Of a DNA stretch of 38,909 nucleotides, positions 4,500 through 13,867 are shown piece by piece. This DNA comes from a virus (taxonomy: Duplodnaviria; Heunggongvirae; Uroviricota; Caudoviricetes). The stretch covers positions 1 to 38,909 of IMG/VR virus record IMGVR_UViG_2630968766_000008, one strand, 5' to 3'. The position numbers and the translations under genes were made by a program. The first letter of the stretch is position 1. Each line of letters starts with the position of its first letter. Below the pieces are notes generated by a model. It saw nothing but the letters and a program-made list of their open reading frames with translations. It was not told the origin of the DNA and did no database searches.

Positions 4500-4557
4500 A
4501 AAAAGGGCGGCAGAGCAGTCACGGAGTAAAACTGATACCGCCAAACGTCACCAGAAA
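4500..4557 (-). ncRNA. dicF: DicF small RNA (ftsZ translational inhibitor) including its intrinsic terminator
   Basis: Reverse complement of 4500-4557 reads TTTCTGGTGACGTTTGGCGGTATCAGTTTTACTCCGTGACTGCTCTGCCGCCCTTTTT, which matches the DicF sequence as I recall it, ending in a GC-rich hairpin (GGCGG...CCGCC) plus U-run. Lies between ydfC and dicB as in Qin. Confidence 0.75.
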
Positions 4558-6451: not shown

Positions 6452-6986
6452 ACAGGTTTGTGAGGCTCTGGATGCCTGGGTATGTCGACCAGGAATGACA
6501 CAGGAGCAGGCGACGATATTAATCACGGAAGCATTCTGGGCTCTGAAAGAACGCCCGAACATCGATGTTCAACGCGTCACGTTTAATGATGGCGAGGTTG
6601 ATCAACGGGCGCTGGGCGTTAACCGGGTGAAGATATTCGAACGCTGGAAAGCTATCGACACCAGGGATAAGCGGGAAAAATTCACGGCGCTGATTCCGGC
6701 AATTATGGAGGCTATCCGGATCAGCGATTTCAGGTTGTATTGTGAAATTACTGACGGAAAAAGCATTACGTACATGATCGCCGGGTTAAACAAAGAATAT
6801 GGCGATGTGGTGGAGTCCGGGCTGCTTTTTGCGGATCCATCTGTTGTGGAACGTGAGACTGACGAGCTTATAGAAAAAGCTATTGCTTTCAAGCATGCGT
6901 ATCGTCAGCAATATCAATATTACTTTGCAGATAAACAAATGTCTGCCAGGGGTTCGTATGAGTATCGATGCACTACGATGGGCTAA
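6435..6986 (+). CDS. Hypothetical protein, possibly YdaT-family (occupies the cII position)
   Basis: 183-aa ORF directly after the Cro-like gene, overlapping it by 17 nt; assignment to the YdaT family is from positional analogy and vague motif memory only. Confidence 0.4.
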   Translation: MKITPEQVCEALDAWVCRPGMTQEQATILITEAFWALKERPNIDVQRVTFNDGEVDQRALGVNRVKIFERWKAIDTRDKREKFTALIPAIMEAIRISDFRLYCEITDGKSITYMIAGLNKEYGDVVESGLLFADPSVVERETDELIEKAIAFKHAYRQQYQYYFADKQMSARGSYEYRCTTMG

Positions 6987-7998
6987 AAAGGTGAAAACCG
7001 GCAGTTCATCCAGTAAGTCTGTATTGACCTGGCTTGCTGATATGTGCGGTGCCGATTTGTGTGCATACCCGTCTGTATCTGCACTGGCAGAAGTAACGGA
7101 ACTGAACAAAAAGACTGTGCAGGACAGCTTACGACACCTGATGGAGATTGGGTTAATTGTTGATACCGGTGAGAGAAAAGGCAGAACAAAGCAAATTGTG
7201 GTGTACCGACTTATCGGTGTAGAAGAAAGTGTTGCCGAGCCTGAATACACCCAAAAACGGGAGTCTTTAAAGGTGGGTAAAATTGGTGCTGTTAATAAAA
7301 ACAGTACCGAAAATGGTTATGTTTCAGCACAAAACAGACCCAAAAACGGAACTCTTAGCTGCATGGAAAATAACCAAAGACACCCAAATTTTCCATCAAA
7401 GACACCCAAAAACGGATCACGGAACCCAAAGGAACCCAAAGATCTAAACCCCACACATAACGCACGCGAGAGTGCTCCGACCAGTGAGCAGGAAGTTTTA
7501 TCGTTACAGGCAGCACCCCTTGTATTCCTGGATGGCCTGAGCGAACCCATCGGAAAATTTCCGATGACCGATAGCTGGTATCCGTCACGGGATTTTCGAC
7601 GACGGGCTGCGTTGTGGGGGATGGCTTTGCCGGAGACAGAATTTACACCTGCTGAACTTGCCGCCTTCCGGGACTACTGGGCAGCGGAGGGGAAAGTGTT
7701 TACGCAGATTCAGTGGGAGCAGAAATTCGCCCGTCACGTAAATCACGTCAGGGCGCAGGTTAAACCAGTCAGCAAGGGGGGGAGCCATGCAGCAGCACCA
7801 GGTGGCACCGCATCACGGGCAGTTCAGGAAATTCGGGCAGCACGTGAGCAGTGGGAACGTGAAAACGGATTTATCAGCGACGGAAACGGCGTGGAAGCTG
7901 TGGGAACTCATGGGGGATGTTTATTCGAACCGCTGGACCCAGAAGAACGGGGTCGCACCTTCGAAGCTCTGGATTGCACAGATTGGCGCGATGACTGA
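6958..7998 (+). CDS. Replication initiation protein (O-like N-terminal wHTH, DnaT-like C-terminal domain)
   Basis: ORF 6883-7998; likely start ATG 6958 (MSIDALRWAKKV...). N-terminus looks like a helix-turn-helix replication protein; C-terminal TDSWYPS...FTPAELAAFRDYW segment resembles the DnaT/primosomal domain fused to phage replication proteins. Confidence 0.6.
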   Translation: MSIDALRWAKKVKTGSSSSKSVLTWLADMCGADLCAYPSVSALAEVTELNKKTVQDSLRHLMEIGLIVDTGERKGRTKQIVVYRLIGVEESVAEPEYTQKRESLKVGKIGAVNKNSTENGYVSAQNRPKNGTLSCMENNQRHPNFPSKTPKNGSRNPKEPKDLNPTHNARESAPTSEQEVLSLQAAPLVFLDGLSEPIGKFPMTDSWYPSRDFRRRAALWGMALPETEFTPAELAAFRDYWAAEGKVFTQIQWEQKFARHVNHVRAQVKPVSKGGSHAAAPGGTASRAVQEIRAAREQWERENGFISDGNGVEAVGTHGGCLFEPLDPEERGRTFEALDCTDWRDD

Positions 7999-8452
7999 GC
8001 AGCAAATCCGACAGGTCTGCCGCCAGTGCATGGACCGCTGCCGGGCGGGTGAAACATGGCCTCCTGACCTGGCTGAGTTTGTGGCGTTGATTTCAGAAAG
8101 TGGAGCCAATCCATTCGGTCTGACGGTAGATGCCGTGATGGAAGAGTACCGCCGCTGGCGCAACGAGTCCTGGCGATACGACGGGAGCGATAAATACCCG
8201 TGGTCTCAGCCTGTGCTGTATCACATTTGCCTCGAGATGCGTTCAAAGGGGATTGAGCGCCAGATGACCGAAGGGGAATTAAAACGGCTTGCAGAACGGC
8301 AGCTGACGAAATGGGCAAAGCATGTTAGTAACGGCCTGAGCGTTCCGCCAGTCCGGCGACAACTGGAGGCACCCAAACGCCCGTCGGGGCCAACGCCAAT
8401 TGAGTTGCTGAAACAGGAATATGAACGCCGGAAAGCGGCTGGGTTTGTTTGA
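7787..8452 (+). CDS. Replication protein P-like (DnaB helicase loader); start uncertain (7787, 7910 or 7991)
   Basis: Segments WPPDLAEFVALI, YPWSQPVLYHICLEMRS, MTEGELKRLAERQL align by eye with lambda P (PSPGQFVAWC..., YPWKSNAHYWLV..., LTDAELRRKAADEL). ATG 7991 overlaps upstream stop as ATGACTGA. Confidence 0.55.
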   Translation: MQQHQVAPHHGQFRKFGQHVSSGNVKTDLSATETAWKLWELMGDVYSNRWTQKNGVAPSKLWIAQIGAMTEQQIRQVCRQCMDRCRAGETWPPDLAEFVALISESGANPFGLTVDAVMEEYRRWRNESWRYDGSDKYPWSQPVLYHICLEMRSKGIERQMTEGELKRLAERQLTKWAKHVSNGLSVPPVRRQLEAPKRPSGPTPIELLKQEYERRKAAGFV

Positions 8453-8484
8453 GTTGAGAAGTAATTTTTACCGGGAGGAAATTT

Positions 8485-9255
8485 ATGGAGACTGTTTTTG
8501 ACGCACTGAAAGCGATGGGAAAAGCCACGTCGGTAGAGCTGGCTGCGCGACTTGATATCAGTCGTGAAGAAGTGCTGAACGAACTATGGGAACTGAAAAA
8601 GGCTGGCTTCGTTGATAAAAGCGTATACACCTGGCGTGTGGCTGGCGAAGGTGAATCCGGGGTAGCCGAAGAGCAGCCAGCACAATCTGAAGTACAGGAT
8701 GTGCTAACCAGGGAGGTCGAACGAAAAGTTACCGCTGACATGATGATTGAGTTTATCGGTCAGGAGGGTGCTAAAACGTGTGAGGAACTGGCGGGTAAGT
8801 TCGGTGTCAGCACTCGCAAGGTTGCTTCCACGCTGGCGGTAGTAACCGCAACGGGGCGGCTGGCACGCGTAAACCAGAACGGTAAATTTCGCTACTGCAT
8901 GCCGGGCGAGAATTTACCAGCTGAGCCGAAAGCTGCACCGGTAACGAAAACGGCTGGTAAGGCATTTCCTCAGCCCGCAGGTGTTGCGTTACCAGTACAG
9001 GAGGCTGCAACACAGGAAGATATTAAAACAGAAACTGTGGCGGACATTGTGCAGTCGCTGCCATCGTTCACCGAAACGCGAGCGGATGACCTGATTTTAC
9101 CATCGCTGCATATGGCAAACCGCGAACTGCGTCGAGCGAAAAGTCATGTCCAGAAGTGGGAGCGTGTCTGCGCCGCGCTGCGTGAGCTGAACAGGCACCG
9201 GGATATTGTCCGACAGATTGTCGATTCTTCCCGCCGTGTTGTATCGGAAAAGTGA
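8485..9255 (+). CDS. Hypothetical protein with two winged-helix-like repeats
   Basis: 256-aa ORF with Shine-Dalgarno GGAGG; two repeats of a [16 protein letters not shown].../[16 protein letters not shown]... wHTH-like pattern. Confidence 0.5.
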
Positions 9256-9692
9256 TTGCCGGAGGCGCTTATGGCAAAAGTATTTACACAAGAAGAGCGG
9301 GAAAAATTAAAGGGCAGGTTGTTGAACTTGTACGCCAGAGTGGGCGCGAGACGTTACGACAACTGGAAGCTAAAACCGGGGCAACAAGATATCTGATGAG
9401 TGTTCTCGCAAGAGAGCTGGTTGCCAGTGGCGATGTATACAACTCTGGCTACGGGTTATTCCCGTCTGAACAGGCGCGTAAGGACTGGCAAAACGCCCGC
9501 AAAAAACTCTCGAGGGCAAAGCTGAAGAAAACATCTGTGGTTGATCCGGACCTTATCTGGTCGTTACCAGACGGAGAAATTCGCCGCTATGACAGGCGTC
9601 TGAACATAATCTGTCGCGAGTGCCGAAAGAGCGAAGCTATGCAGCGTGTACTGGCTTTCTATCAGGGTAATTTTCAGGAGGCGGTACTGTGA
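9252..9692 (+). CDS. Hypothetical wHTH-like protein (146 aa, GTG start overlapping upstream stop as GTGA); start uncertain
   Basis: N-terminal [32 protein letters not shown] repeats the wHTH pattern of the preceding gene, which supports this frame over a 41-aa alternative-frame ORF at 9271-9396. Confidence 0.45.
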
Positions 9693-9749
9693 GTGAAATT
9701 AGCTATCAGGCTTCAATTGCCGCTGGCATTCGCATCAAAGGAGAGGAGC

Positions 9750-10106
9750 ATGGAAATAAAACCAGAGGATGAGTTAAGCAATATCGTTTTATTTCCGATA
9801 AAAGAGGATGACCCTCGTAATCAGGTTAATTTTCTTTATGAGCCATCGGAAAGACCATATTGCCATCATGCTTCTGTCCGGGTTGACGAAAAAGAGCGTC
9901 AGGTCCGCTGTAAAATCTGCGGTGCAGTTGTGGAGCCATTTGACTGGATGCTCTCTGTGGCGAAAAGAGAAACCAGACTGGCAGATGATGTAAAACTATT
10001 GCGCCAGGAGGAACAGGAAAGGCGAAAAAATATAGAAAAGCTAATTCAGATTGAGCGTAATGCGAAAGCACGGATACGCAGGGTGACAAAATCCAGAACT
10101 GAATAA
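9750..10106 (+). CDS. Hypothetical zinc-ribbon protein with basic coiled C-terminus
   Basis: 118-aa from ATG 9750 with AAAGGAGAGGAG Shine-Dalgarno; CHH...CKICG cysteine/histidine cluster; K/R/E-rich C-terminal helix. Confidence 0.45.
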   Translation: MEIKPEDELSNIVLFPIKEDDPRNQVNFLYEPSERPYCHHASVRVDEKERQVRCKICGAVVEPFDWMLSVAKRETRLADDVKLLRQEEQERRKNIEKLIQIERNAKARIRRVTKSRTE

Positions 10107-10199
10107 TTAAATTTAGCACTGTTAAAAATTTAATCCTTAACCGGAGGGATTTCTGCACCCTCAGAACAGCAGGAGGCCACCCGAAAGGGTGGTAGTGAA

Positions 10200-10382
10200 A
10201 TGCGAAAGTTCAAAATAATTATTGAAACGGGAATAGCTGGTGGAGATTTTGAGGATGTATTCGAAGTGGACGATGACGCAACACCTGATGAAATTCATGA
10301 CGAAGCAAAAGAAATTTTCTTTAACTACTGCAATTACTCATATCACGAAATAAAAGACGAAGAGGAAGAACAAAATGGCTGA
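10200..10382 (+). CDS. Small highly acidic protein (60 aa)
   Basis: ORF rich in D/E (FEDVFEVDDDATPDEIHDEAKE...KDEEEEQNG); preceded by AGGAGG and a hairpin; stop overlaps next start. Confidence 0.35.
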   Translation: MRKFKIIIETGIAGGDFEDVFEVDDDATPDEIHDEAKEIFFNYCNYSYHEIKDEEEEQNG

Positions 10383-10551
10383 TTTTGGTTCAACTAAATA
10401 CAACGTCAGTTTTGAAGAATGGCATGAACTGTTAATGGACTATGCAGAGTTACGTGGTGGAAGTGCTGTTGATGCTGAAGCCTGGCGTGATGACTACGAA
10501 GCAGGAAAAACTCCGGTCGAAGCATATTGTGATGAGTGGGGCGATGATTGA
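10375..10551 (+). CDS. Small acidic protein (58 aa), translationally coupled to the previous ORF
   Basis: ATG overlaps upstream stop (ATGGCTGA); translation MADFGSTKYNVSFEEWHELLMDYAELRGGSAVDAEAWRDDYEAGKTPVEAYCDEWGDD; below the 60-aa cutoff of the supplied ORF track. Confidence 0.3.
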   Translation: MADFGSTKYNVSFEEWHELLMDYAELRGGSAVDAEAWRDDYEAGKTPVEAYCDEWGDD

Positions 10552-10736
10552 TTATGACCACAATTACCAGAGAACGACTGCTGGAAATGTTTGCGTGAAA
10601 AGGAGAGTTAAGTAAAATCGCCGCGGGTGCTTGAGGCTATCTGCCTCGGGCATGAACACCAACGGCAGATAGAGAAAAGCCCCAGTTAACATTACGCGTC
10701 CGGCAAGACGCTTAACATTAATCTGAGGCTCAATCT

Positions 10737-10949
10737 ATGAACGGCAAATCTAGGTTAGCCTCTTACGTGCCGAAAGGCAAGGAGAAGCAGGCTATGAAGC
10801 AGCAAAAGGCGATGTTAGTCGCCCTGATCGTCATCTGTATTACCGTCATTGTGACGGCACTGGTAACGAGGAAAGACCTCTGCGAGGTACGAATCCGAAC
10901 CGGCCAGACGGAGGTCGCTGTCTTCACAGCTTACGAACCTGAGGAGTAA
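10737..10949 (+). CDS. mok: Mok-like regulatory reading frame (in-frame N-terminal extension of hok)
   Basis: 70-aa ORF sharing stop with hok, as for mokC/hokC in E. coli K-12 (69/50 aa). Confidence 0.5.
   Translation: MNGKSRLASYVPKGKEKQAMKQQKAMLVALIVICITVIVTALVTRKDLCEVRIRTGQTEVAVFTAYEPEE
10794..10949 (+). CDS. hok: Hok/Gef family type I toxin (membrane-depolarising peptide)
   Basis: 51-aa MKQQKAMLVALIVICITVIVTALVTRKDLCEVRIRTGQTEVAVFTAYEPEE, very close to HokC/Gef; AAGGAGAAG Shine-Dalgarno; followed by strong intrinsic terminator. Confidence 0.85.
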   Translation: MKQQKAMLVALIVICITVIVTALVTRKDLCEVRIRTGQTEVAVFTAYEPEE

Positions 10950-13590: not shown

Positions 13591-13620
13591 TTGACCAGAC
13601 ACATTGTCCGGGGCTATATT
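13591..13620 (+). promoter_or_regulatory. Late promoter pR' analogue (Q-modified)
   Basis: TTGACC (13591-13596) - 17/18 nt - TATATT (13615-13620) directly downstream of Q. Confidence 0.5.
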
Positions 13621-13682
13621 CCTCACGCGCCAGCAAAATCTGGCGTCGGGATTAGGAACCCCGGATTGAGACCGCGACAGAT

Positions 13683-13706
13683 ACACGCCGCGAGCGTGTT
13701 TTTTAT
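13683..13706 (+). terminator. tR'-like intrinsic terminator of the short late leader RNA
   Basis: ACACGCCGCGAGCGTGT hairpin followed by TTTTTTATT, ~80 nt downstream of the putative pR'. Confidence 0.5.
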
Positions 13707-13867
13707 TGTCGTATGCACGCGCACATCTGAATTATGGTGGGGCGTATGGGGGAGCTGAAAGGCTCGCCGGTTGGTTTCCCGGTAGTTCCTAACCCTGTAC
13801 GTCTCACCACCCGATGATTAGGAACCTGACGGTGGTGATAGTTTAGAAACCACTAGAGGGCGTCATT

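Follow-up and report, generated by a model that had tools for sequence, protein, structure and literature searches.

Gene content and genomic setting

The window analysed here is the whole of a 38,909-nucleotide stretch of Caudoviricetes DNA (IMG/VR record IMGVR_UViG_2630968766_000008). Between positions 8,485 and 10,106, its forward strand carries an intact ydaW gene, a frameshifted lygF gene and a gene for a small zinc-knuckle protein. This segment comes from a Rac/Qin-like lambdoid prophage of E. coli, where it forms a mosaic part of the early rightward (pR-type) operon. The three genes directly follow the replication genes and take the slot occupied by ren in lambda; the gene order is O-like, P, ydaW, lygF in the window and O, P, ren in lambda. 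The first-pass annotation had correctly read the region as early-right operon, with the replication genes on one side and Q on the other, and both the 256-aa open reading frame at 8485-9255 and the Cys/His protein ending at 10106 that it described are present. Its statement that no family was recognisable has to be withdrawn, as the families are DUF1627 (YdaW), DUF977 (LygF, phrog_142) and phrog_1621 (the zinc-knuckle protein). These are recognised and common phage families, ordinary rather than new. Identity to annotated E. coli prophages is 99-100% across the region, and part of the 2-kb region is matched by 4595 of the 5426 complete E. coli genomes (85%).

The first-pass annotation had also considered homology to replication or recombination accessory proteins such as NinB or NinE. 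None of the three proteins matches the NinB, NinE, NinG or NinH families of Pfam and PHROG, or any protein with an established mechanism in replication or recombination; the named homologue that did emerge is lambda Ren. Searches of PDB sequences with all three proteins returned only noise at E>0.1, and the NCBIfam search gave nothing specific. The hok/sok module lies 0.5 kb downstream.

YdaW, a full-length DUF1627 protein

The ydaW gene (8485..9255, forward strand) encodes 256 amino acids, and its ATG is preceded by GGGAGG 7 nt upstream. With 328.2 bits (E=8.4e-99), the product far exceeds the PF07789 gathering score of 28.1; it covers the whole 155-position profile and matches phrog_630 at full length (1e-134; positions 1-252 of 253). 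Its identity to the database clusters that bear the DUF1627 name is 95%. Taken together, the AlphaFold2 model and a 45-sequence family alignment reveal the full DUF1627 architecture, namely two winged-helix (wHTH) domains, a SIPxFT motif and a basic C-terminal helix, with disordered linkers between the confidently predicted domains.

The first domain (aa 1-55; 8485..8649) is acidic (pI 5.05), is modelled as H-H-H-E-E with a pLDDT of 94-97, and gives weak matches to HTH_11, TrmB and MarR. The second (aa 81-140; 8725..8904; pLDDT 94-96) is basic (pI 9.5) and resembles Ren and LygF: it matches phrog_142 at 1.3e-5, the LygF N-terminus at 6e-4 by BLASTP, and an alignment of LygF and Ren at E=3.3e-5 by hhalign. 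These two domains and the N-terminus of LygF, a protein that matches DUF977 and phrog_142 at full length, are the three repeated wHTH units that had been noticed at first pass. The DUF977 family has previously been assigned to the winged helices by HHpred and COMPASS (PMC2686095). The repeat pattern holds at the level of the fold, whereas homology at the level of sequence is clear only for units 2 and 3; wHTH1 compares weakly with the other units (hhalign E=4e-3), and BLASTP finds no alignment between it and the rest of YdaW.

Within a disordered linker lies the motif VQSLPSFT (9049..9072), the local form of the family consensus SIPxFT ("IPSFT"), which is conserved throughout the 45-sequence alignment and retained even in mini-YdaW proteins of 118-159 aa that lack wHTH2. 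A reading of this motif as clamp- or SSB-tail-like was rejected for its poor fit to those consensuses. The protein ends in a strongly basic helix (aa 208-255; 9106..9249; pI 11.4; pLDDT 90-96) with the consensus EIRRTKxxLxxLExxRxAxR, in which R216 is invariant in the 45-sequence alignment. Homology between this helix and that of LygF, both of which show DLIxxSL...EIRR, was also considered and dropped (BLASTP E=3.3; hhalign aligned no helices). A Foldseek comparison of the YdaW model with the PDB recovers only generic winged helices, and the best structural matches include the protein-binding tandem winged helices of ESCRT-II, ScpB and DDRGK1.

The Rac prophage of E. coli K-12 carries a member of the same DUF1627 family (YdaW, b1361) at the same place, after ydaV or P. 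Residues 1-154 of this protein are 66% identical to the window copy, and wHTH1 is nearly identical. The K-12 form is a 186-aa truncation that has the two wHTH domains only and lacks both the IPSFT motif and the C-terminal helix, whereas the window copy is full-length. K-12 ydaW came out of an overexpression screen as a blocker hit against RcaT, the toxin of retron-Sen2 (bioRxiv 10.1101/2020.06.22.160242). This is the one hint at a function for YdaW, and it belongs to the truncated K-12 protein and not to the full-length form found here. The cro-like repressor DicC scored in the screen as well, so that the RcaT hit may reflect a non-specific HTH effect.

A frameshifted lygF gene

The second gene, lygF (9271..9692, forward strand), is a pseudogene created by a single-nucleotide deletion. 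Alignment to intact alleles locates the lesion at 9302..9306, where the window has five A residues and intact alleles have six; the break falls at codon 12/13, and the reading frame from the native ATG is thus interrupted. The native start is ATG 9271, preceded by GGAGG at 9261-9265. Judged from the alignment, two overlapping open reading frames are the halves of the broken gene: a 41-aa frame (9271..9396) begins with codons 1-12 of native LygF and then runs on out of frame, and a 146-aa frame (9252..9692) is the LygF frame lengthened at its 5' side as far as a chance GTG that overlaps the ydaW stop codon. The latter passes the PF06163 gathering score (85.5 bits against 22.1; 4e-24; profile positions 12-134), and the Pfam match begins only at its residue 18. 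The 146-aa gene proposed at first pass is therefore not a real gene, and PGAP annotates an identical copy in SC516 as a frameshifted DUF977 pseudogene. The suspicion that had fallen on its start, and the Shine-Dalgarno sequence noted before 9271, were both well founded; the apparent choice between 9252 and 9271 results from the 1-nt deletion and not from alternative initiation.

The lesion is rare. The exact A5 allele occurs in only 2 of the 1286 complete E. coli genomes with a 70-mer match, the closest relatives having A6, and among 80 LygF loci in IMG/VR, A6 was found in 64 and A5 in one. It follows from the broken state of the gene that at least lygF is dispensable for this prophage. Once repaired, LygF is 99% identical to DUF977 proteins in the databases and matches phrog_142 at 2.8e-48 over positions 1-115 of 116. 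Apart from the A5 deletion, the window allele corresponds to the LygF/DUF977 proteins annotated in prophages of E. coli and Salmonella, whose name, in use for Rac-SA53 and in many phage records, comes without functional content. The name LygF stands on at least 20 phage records, and a literature search for it returned only announcements of Salmonella genomes and papers on lysozyme that have no bearing on the gene.

A mobile zinc-knuckle gene of the nin region

The third gene (9750..10106, forward strand) encodes a 118-aa protein of phrog_1621 (3e-55), composed of a zinc knuckle and a basic helix. Its start is likely ATG 9750 rather than GTG 9693, since most homologues begin at the corresponding methionine; the sequence GGAGAGGAG lies upstream of this ATG. 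The Cys/His cluster with a basic helical tail that had been described at first pass is confirmed by 32 aligned homologues and the predicted model. The putative zinc ligands C38, H40, C54 and C57 (CxH...CxxC; 9861..9920) are invariant in these homologues, the model places small beta strands at residues 43-46 and 51-54, and a long basic helix spans residues 63-117 (55 residues; 9936..10100; pI 10.5). A near-invariant stretch of the helix reads LRxEExxRRxNIEKLIQIERNAKARIRR.

The knuckle recalls the TFIIB-type zinc ribbon (PF08271) and other small phage zinc ribbons such as Lar, in which a small beta knuckle likewise carries the four metal ligands. The N-terminal ribbon of TFIIB is the top structural match, at a sub-threshold Foldseek E of 0.28 (to 1pft), and the protein scores 21.5 bits against PF08271, below the gathering cut-off of 29. 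In contrast to the TFIIB ribbon and Lar, it uses CxH...CxxC ligands, and its conserved acidic N-terminal peptide and 55-residue basic helix have no counterpart there. Profile searches gave no match to Lar, DksA/TraR or the lambda Nin proteins, and Foldseek searches of the PDB and BFVD with the model found only sub-threshold zinc ribbons.

We found 150 homologues, the named ones all from Enterobacterales. In Serratia, Yersinia and Klebsiella prophages they follow RusA, NinG, NinH or YbcO and stand just before Q, which marks the zinc protein as an independent, mobile gene of the nin region.

Three independent genes

The first-pass annotation had implicitly grouped the three genes, a grouping that their distribution in related prophages does not bear out. 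Of the 80 IMG/VR LygF loci, about half have YdaW upstream and about half have the zinc protein downstream; every combination occurs, and no conserved co-occurrence of all three was found. Because all combinations occur, and as far as gene order in relatives can tell, the three genes are mutually independent and not one system. A genome scan for YdaW used a 12-sequence alignment as its query. YdaW is found after both DnaC-type and lambda-P-type helicase loaders, LygF follows it in only 1 of 13 loci (12 of the 13 being non-E. coli), and in Citrobacter and Raoultella a phrog_142 gene lies upstream of YdaW. Phage 640R1 has LygF without YdaW. Other cargo was seen in relatives of this neighbourhood: one assembly has a DUF262 protein plus an AAA ATPase behind DUF977, and in E. 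ruysiae YdaW is succeeded by a protein of 689 aa.

Relationship to lambda Ren

The classical phenotype of lambda Ren is protection of the phage from Rex exclusion. To our knowledge no mechanism is available for this protection, a question that is more than 40 years old.

By sequence, LygF is a member of the Ren family with clear homology to lambda Ren. The 96-aa lambda protein belongs to phrog_142 ('Ren-like exclusion protein'; 1.6e-41), so that the two share a full-length PHROG profile. They also share one plan, an N-terminal winged helix followed by a basic C-terminal motif (xECRxSxAMxRVLAxY), as well as their basic charge and a place in the pR operon behind the replication genes. Across the C-terminal motif NLVFKECRQSAAMKRVLAVY, 12 of 20 residues are identical (BLASTP E=4e-7), and the natural Ren of phage PhiR30_1 carries the LygF tail RVLAFYRGNFQ at its end. 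LygF differs in its length of 140 aa, in a 10-residue N-terminal extension and in a basic insert that separates the modules by about 30-40 residues, and identity is low outside the C-terminal motif. It should be kept in mind that the family is defined by the protection that lambda Ren gives from Rex exclusion, whereas LygF is placed in it by sequence and the window copy is frameshifted.

YdaW stands further away. Mini-YdaW proteins, with one wHTH domain, the motif and the helix, follow the same plan as Ren, whereas the likeness of YdaW itself to Ren and LygF (E 1e-5 to 1e-3) is limited to the winged helix, which is among the very common folds. In a bacterial two-hybrid study, the Rex proteins interacted with both lambda O and Ren (bioRxiv 10.1101/2021.04.19.439022). 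No rexAB was seen adjoining the repressor of this prophage, and any Ren-like role would thus be directed at systems on other elements.

Possible functions of the early-operon proteins

We favour, on balance, an overall explanation in which the region is an early-operon mosaic of three independent genes with a Ren-like adaptor role. The functional part of this reading is more tentative: it is possible, by analogy with Ren, that these small early-operon proteins act as adaptors against exclusion or defence systems. They would be non-enzymatic and produced early in lytic growth. YdaW and LygF might bind a component of a host- or prophage-encoded exclusion or abortive-infection system, as Ren may do; alternatively, they could bind the replication-associated DNA-protein complexes that trigger exclusion or abortive infection. 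The winged helix, together with the basic helix at the C-terminus, would provide the contact, with the outcome that the phage's own replication would no longer set off cell suicide. Points in favour are the phrog_142 genes upstream of YdaW in Citrobacter and Raoultella, the Ren-like plan of the mini-YdaW proteins, the two-hybrid result for Rex and Ren, the RcaT hit and the non-essential nature of ren. Points against are the possible non-specific HTH effect in the RcaT screen, the lack of a neighbouring rexAB, the commonness of the shared fold, the generic structure matches and the broken lygF. The modelled architecture of the zinc protein would fit a nucleic-acid or protein clamp acting late in the nin region.

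An extension of this proposal, which we regard as unlikely, is that YdaW, LygF/Ren and perhaps the zinc protein form a diversifying toolkit of counter-defence adaptors after the replication genes. Each adaptor would then disarm its own abortive-infection sensor or toxin, of the kind that intermediates of phage replication set off, with Rex as the target for Ren and RcaT-type retron toxins as targets for YdaW, and the duplication of the winged helix from mini-YdaW to YdaW would broaden the range of targets.

The main rival to the counter-defence adaptor reading holds that YdaW and LygF, like Ren, are replication accessories that adjust the initiation of phage replication by binding DnaB or the origin-initiator-loader complex. 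Whatever replication module is present, the genes are always found right behind it. However, initiators and loaders of unrelated types precede YdaW and LygF, which argues against a specific protein partner; ren is non-essential and dispensable for lambda growth (PMC10695390) and is not needed for P-lethality and replicative killing (PMC3640518). The occurrence of LygF without YdaW in phage 640R1 and the broken lygF of the window also speak against this role, which we hold to be somewhat improbable.

A further alternative is that the winged helices bind operators as sequence-specific transcription factors and regulate phage or host genes. The wHTH is a classical repressor and activator fold, YdaW has been named among predicted E. 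coli transcription factors (PMC9308461), weak matches to MarR, ArsR, TrmB and MntR models exist, and one Serratia neighbour of YdaW resembles a late-promoter activator. Against this, every HTH-family match lies far under its curated cut-off, wHTH1 is acidic, and the best structural matches include the protein-binding domains named above. Moreover, no operator or iteron repeats were found in or beside the three genes, the only iterons being those inside the O-like gene, and the interval 8300-10500 shows neither promoter-like nor convincing terminator-like sites. Regulation of this kind is distinctly unlikely.

The suggestion, which takes up the first-pass idea of an accessory hotspot, that the genes are prophage-encoded defence or superinfection-exclusion cargo appears very improbable. 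It could draw on the defence-like cargo accepted by the neighbourhood in relatives and on the nearby hok/sok, but PADLOC-DB 2.0 gave only weak CARF/Csa3 matches to the HTH segment of YdaW (1e-5) and none for LygF, the zinc protein or Ren. Furthermore, genes in a lytic early operon without a promoter of their own would be silent in the lysogen, and the named homologue Ren protects the phage from exclusion and does not itself exclude.

Finally, a functional 9252/9271 arrangement, by programmed frameshifting or by coupled re-initiation at GTG 9252 or ATG 9396, is scarcely credible: the GTGA overlap with the ydaW stop, the TGATG overlap of ATG 9396 with the stop of the 41-aa frame and the cost of only 12 native residues for use of GTG 9252 would suit it, yet the A5 allele is rare and A6 is found in the closest relatives, there is no in-frame slippery heptamer and no Shine-Dalgarno sequence before 9252, the A-run is short, an 18-codon open stretch arises by chance in about 40% of cases ((61/64)^18), and a product from ATG 9396 would miss half of the winged helix.

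Significance

The window itself adds nothing special on the Ren question, as it holds typical alleles and a broken Ren homologue. The practical gains lie in a corrected gene model, in which the apparent dual start is a frameshift, in the assignment of the third gene to the nin region, and in the recognition that the three genes do not make up a single system. Among the uncharacterised genes of E. coli prophages, DUF1627 and DUF977 rank with the commonest. Given the share of complete genomes that match part of the 2-kb region, a defined function for these two families would annotate thousands of genomes, and it could add a class of anti-abortive-infection proteins.

Genomic Setting of the Three Genes

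The three genes at 8485-10106 belong to a lambdoid (Rac/Qin-like) E. coli prophage and form an ordinary stretch of it. Over a 2-kb region round them, the annotated E. coli relative SC516 is 100% identical save for one indel; of 5426 complete E. coli genomes, 4595 share part of the region, with coverage of at least 80% in 319. As compiled from the ORF list of the window and the PGAP annotation of SC516, the gene order runs from a cI-like repressor (minus strand), cro-like and YdaT/CII-like genes, through a DnaT-domain initiator and a lambda-P-like loader, to the three genes and then to DUF7167, hok/sok, DUF968, RusA and Q. This order places them in the early rightward operon, immediately behind the replication genes, as the first-pass annotation had proposed; in lambda, the corresponding slot is occupied by ren. 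No promoter of their own was found within this lytic early operon.

The neighborhood has several further features. Iteron-like direct repeats at 7241-7440 (core ACACCCAAAAACGG, at least five copies, irregular spacing) lie within the initiator gene and are probably the prophage replication origin, by analogy with ori-lambda within gene O. The mechanical ORF of the P-like loader (7787-8452, 221 aa) overlaps the initiator ORF (6883-7998) by ~210 nt; its start is uncertain, since the Pfam match opens at residue 60 and PGAP begins the gene at ~7991 (153 aa). A full-length hok/sok type I toxin-antitoxin locus (10625-10799; Rfam, sok 107 bits), whose Hok peptide ORF ends at 10949, lies ~0.5 kb downstream of the three genes, and the DicF sRNA (77 bits) is found in the dicB region at 4505-4556 on the minus strand. 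Directly past rusA, an isrK sRNA, C4 antisense RNA and a1/b1 target cluster (13614-13814, plus strand) occupies the position of Q in SC516, so that the late-control region differs between the two prophages; an ARAGORN search of the window turned up no counterpart of the four tRNA genes past Q in SC516.

A Full-Length YdaW

The first gene, ydaW, is an intact 256-aa ORF (8485-9255, GGGAGG upstream) whose product matches Pfam DUF1627 (PF07789; 8.4e-99; 328 bits, cut-off 28) and, over its full length, phrog_630. The window protein represents YdaW at full length; its counterpart in the K-12 Rac prophage is a 186-aa truncation, with 66% identity to residues 1-154 of the window protein. Near the start of the gene, at 8495-8499, the window has T5 and SC516 has T6; the PGAP start of the SC516 gene is therefore Met11, and the window is not exactly SC516. 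In this comparison, the window allele is the intact one.

Among 1.84 billion cluster representatives there are 189 YdaW-related clusters, many of them full-length at 20-50% identity. With 45 of these relatives as input, AlphaFold2 (mean pLDDT 81) models two confident winged helices, at residues 1-55 (wHTH1) and 81-140 (wHTH2); the linkers are disordered, and residues 208-255 form a long helix. Conserved across the family alignment are a SIPxFT motif (residues 191-196 in the window copy) and, within the helix, an invariant Arg216. The first winged helix is acidic (pI 5.05), the second basic (9.5) and the C-terminal helix very basic (11.4). Some relatives are shorter, at 118-159 aa, and have wHTH1, the motif and the helix but no other part; wHTH2 is thus an insertion, the simpler plan being winged helix plus basic helix.

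A Frameshifted lygF Related to ren

The second gene, lygF, is a pseudogene in the window copy. The first-pass annotation had seen a 146-aa gene with a start at either 9252 or 9271, an ambiguity that disappears on comparison with intact lygF of phages Rac-SA53 and vB_EcoS-640R1: the native start is ATG 9271, with GGAGG ahead, and at 9302-9306 the A6 run of the intact genes has lost one A to become A5. The 41-aa ORF (9271-9396) is thus the native N-terminus followed by out-of-frame sequence, and the 146-aa ORF (9252-9692), whose match to Pfam DUF977 (4e-24) begins only at its residue 18, is the native frame stretched upstream to a chance GTG. PGAP labels the identical SC516 copy a frameshifted DUF977 pseudogene, and LygF, once repaired, shares 99% identity with DUF977 database proteins 140-141 aa long.

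The A5 allele is rare. Among the 1286 complete genomes matching a 70-mer that spans the site, SC516 and EC332 alone match it exactly; the closest relatives overall carry A6, as do 64 of 80 IMG/VR loci (A5 in 1), and an exact-pattern scan recovers A5 in 5 IMG/VR contigs. At 9394-9398 (TGATG), the stop of the 41-aa ORF overlaps an ATG in the LygF frame (Met49 of the 146-aa ORF), where termination-reinitiation could in principle give an N-terminally truncated LygF with half of the winged helix missing.

Profile and pairwise comparisons show LygF to be a homologue of lambda Ren. Both repaired LygF (2.8e-48, full length) and Ren (1.6e-41) match phrog_142, the "Ren-like exclusion protein" family, and they share a C-terminal motif (E=4e-7), one of whose two versions is NLVFKECRQSAAMKRVLAVY. 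Both are basic, with a winged helix and then this shared C-terminal module; LygF, unlike Ren, has an additional N-terminal segment and a basic insert. A winged-helix fold was assigned to DUF977 earlier by HHpred and COMPASS (PMC2686095). Since Ren of phage PhiR30_1 (2285-2578 of locus L186) joins a lambda-Ren-type body to a LygF-type tail (RVLAFYRGNFQ), the 3' end common to ren and lygF may mark a recombination joint between mosaic modules.

The three winged-helix-like units proposed at first pass hold at fold level, and the second and third are also homologous in sequence: YdaW 81-140 aligns with the LygF N-terminus in BLASTP (E=6e-4, 37% identity over 46 residues), with phrog_142 (1.3e-5) and, in hhalign, with the LygF and Ren alignment (E=3.3e-5). 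The first unit is marginally similar to the others (hhalign, E=4e-3) and has no BLASTP match to the rest of YdaW; neither program aligned the YdaW and LygF C-terminal helices significantly.

A Zinc Protein of the nin Region

The third gene (9750-10106) encodes a 118-aa zinc protein, with GGAGAGGAG ahead of a start Met that is the one used by most homologues. It matches phrog_1621 (3e-55) and no Pfam family above threshold (TFIIB zinc ribbon, 21.5 bits; cut-off 29). Its homologues number 150, and those with a named organism are all from Enterobacterales. Invariant in their alignment are C38, H40, C54 and C57, as is the N-terminal peptide TETExELSNVVxFP; much of the helix LRxEExxRRxNIEKLIQIERNAKARIRR is invariant too. 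In the model (pLDDT 75), an acidic disordered N-terminus leads into a small beta knuckle, and a helix of 55 residues follows; a Foldseek search of PDB and BFVD returned nothing significant (top match a TFIIB ribbon, E=0.28). In Serratia, Yersinia and Klebsiella, the homologues occupy the distal end of the nin region, directly behind RusA, NinG, NinH or YbcO; stop and start codons overlap in most cases, and one small ORF separates the homologues from Q. This placement identifies the zinc gene as a true nin-region gene that stands beside lygF by chance in the window.

Where the first-pass annotation recognized no family, the genes fall in DUF1627, DUF977 and phrog_1621, which are named and well populated; its observation was largely right and its interpretation partly so.

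Independence of the Three Genes

The three genes do not make one system. Of the 80 IMG/VR LygF loci, about half have YdaW upstream and about half have the zinc protein downstream, in all combinations. A survey of YdaW relatives covered 13 genome loci, 12 of them outside E. coli: YdaW stands behind replication genes in every one, the loader being DnaC-like or lambda-P-like, and is followed by LygF only in E. albertii. Citrobacter and Raoultella have a different phrog_142 protein ahead of YdaW, and Enterobacter a weakly Lar-like zinc ribbon behind it. The combination of winged helix and zinc ribbon is a recurrent theme of the post-replication slot across genera.

Small proteins adjoining distant YdaW genes (L007 3662-3991; L016 3506-3799 and 3778-4017; L014 4599-4856) include winged-helix ones (phrog_142 or phrog_1687) and CPxCG zinc ribbons, one weakly Lar-like (22.7 bits, under the cut-off of 28.6). 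Elsewhere, prophages of E. coli and E. ruysiae carry large cargo in the slot just past DUF977 or YdaW, and this cargo looks like an anti-phage defence island: L183 (4607-7810) has a third gene beside those for a DUF262 protein and an AAA ATPase, and L006 (5004-7073) has a 689-aa protein.

Candidate Function

Anatomy and hints from the literature lead us to favor, tentatively, a Ren-like counter-exclusion role. In classical work, Toothman and Herskowitz (1980) reportedly found that ren mutants turn sensitive to Rex exclusion. The ren gene is non-essential (PMC10695390), and in a bacterial two-hybrid assay Rex proteins contact O and Ren, the latter regarded by those authors as "likely involved in DNA replication" (bioRxiv 10.1101/2021.04.19.439022). 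K-12 ydaW and the cro-like repressor dicC were both blocker hits against RcaT, the toxin of retron-Sen2, in an overexpression screen (bioRxiv 10.1101/2020.06.22.160242), and a list of predicted transcription factors of unknown function includes YdaW (PMC9308461). A replication-accessory role ranks second and seems to us somewhat doubtful; sequence-specific regulation, third in rank, is rather improbable. A defence role is unlikely because PADLOC matches are absent and the genes lie in the lytic operon. Counter-exclusion is favored because the proteins are small and non-enzymatic and combine winged helix and basic helix, and because their genes belong to the lytic early operon and have no separate promoter.
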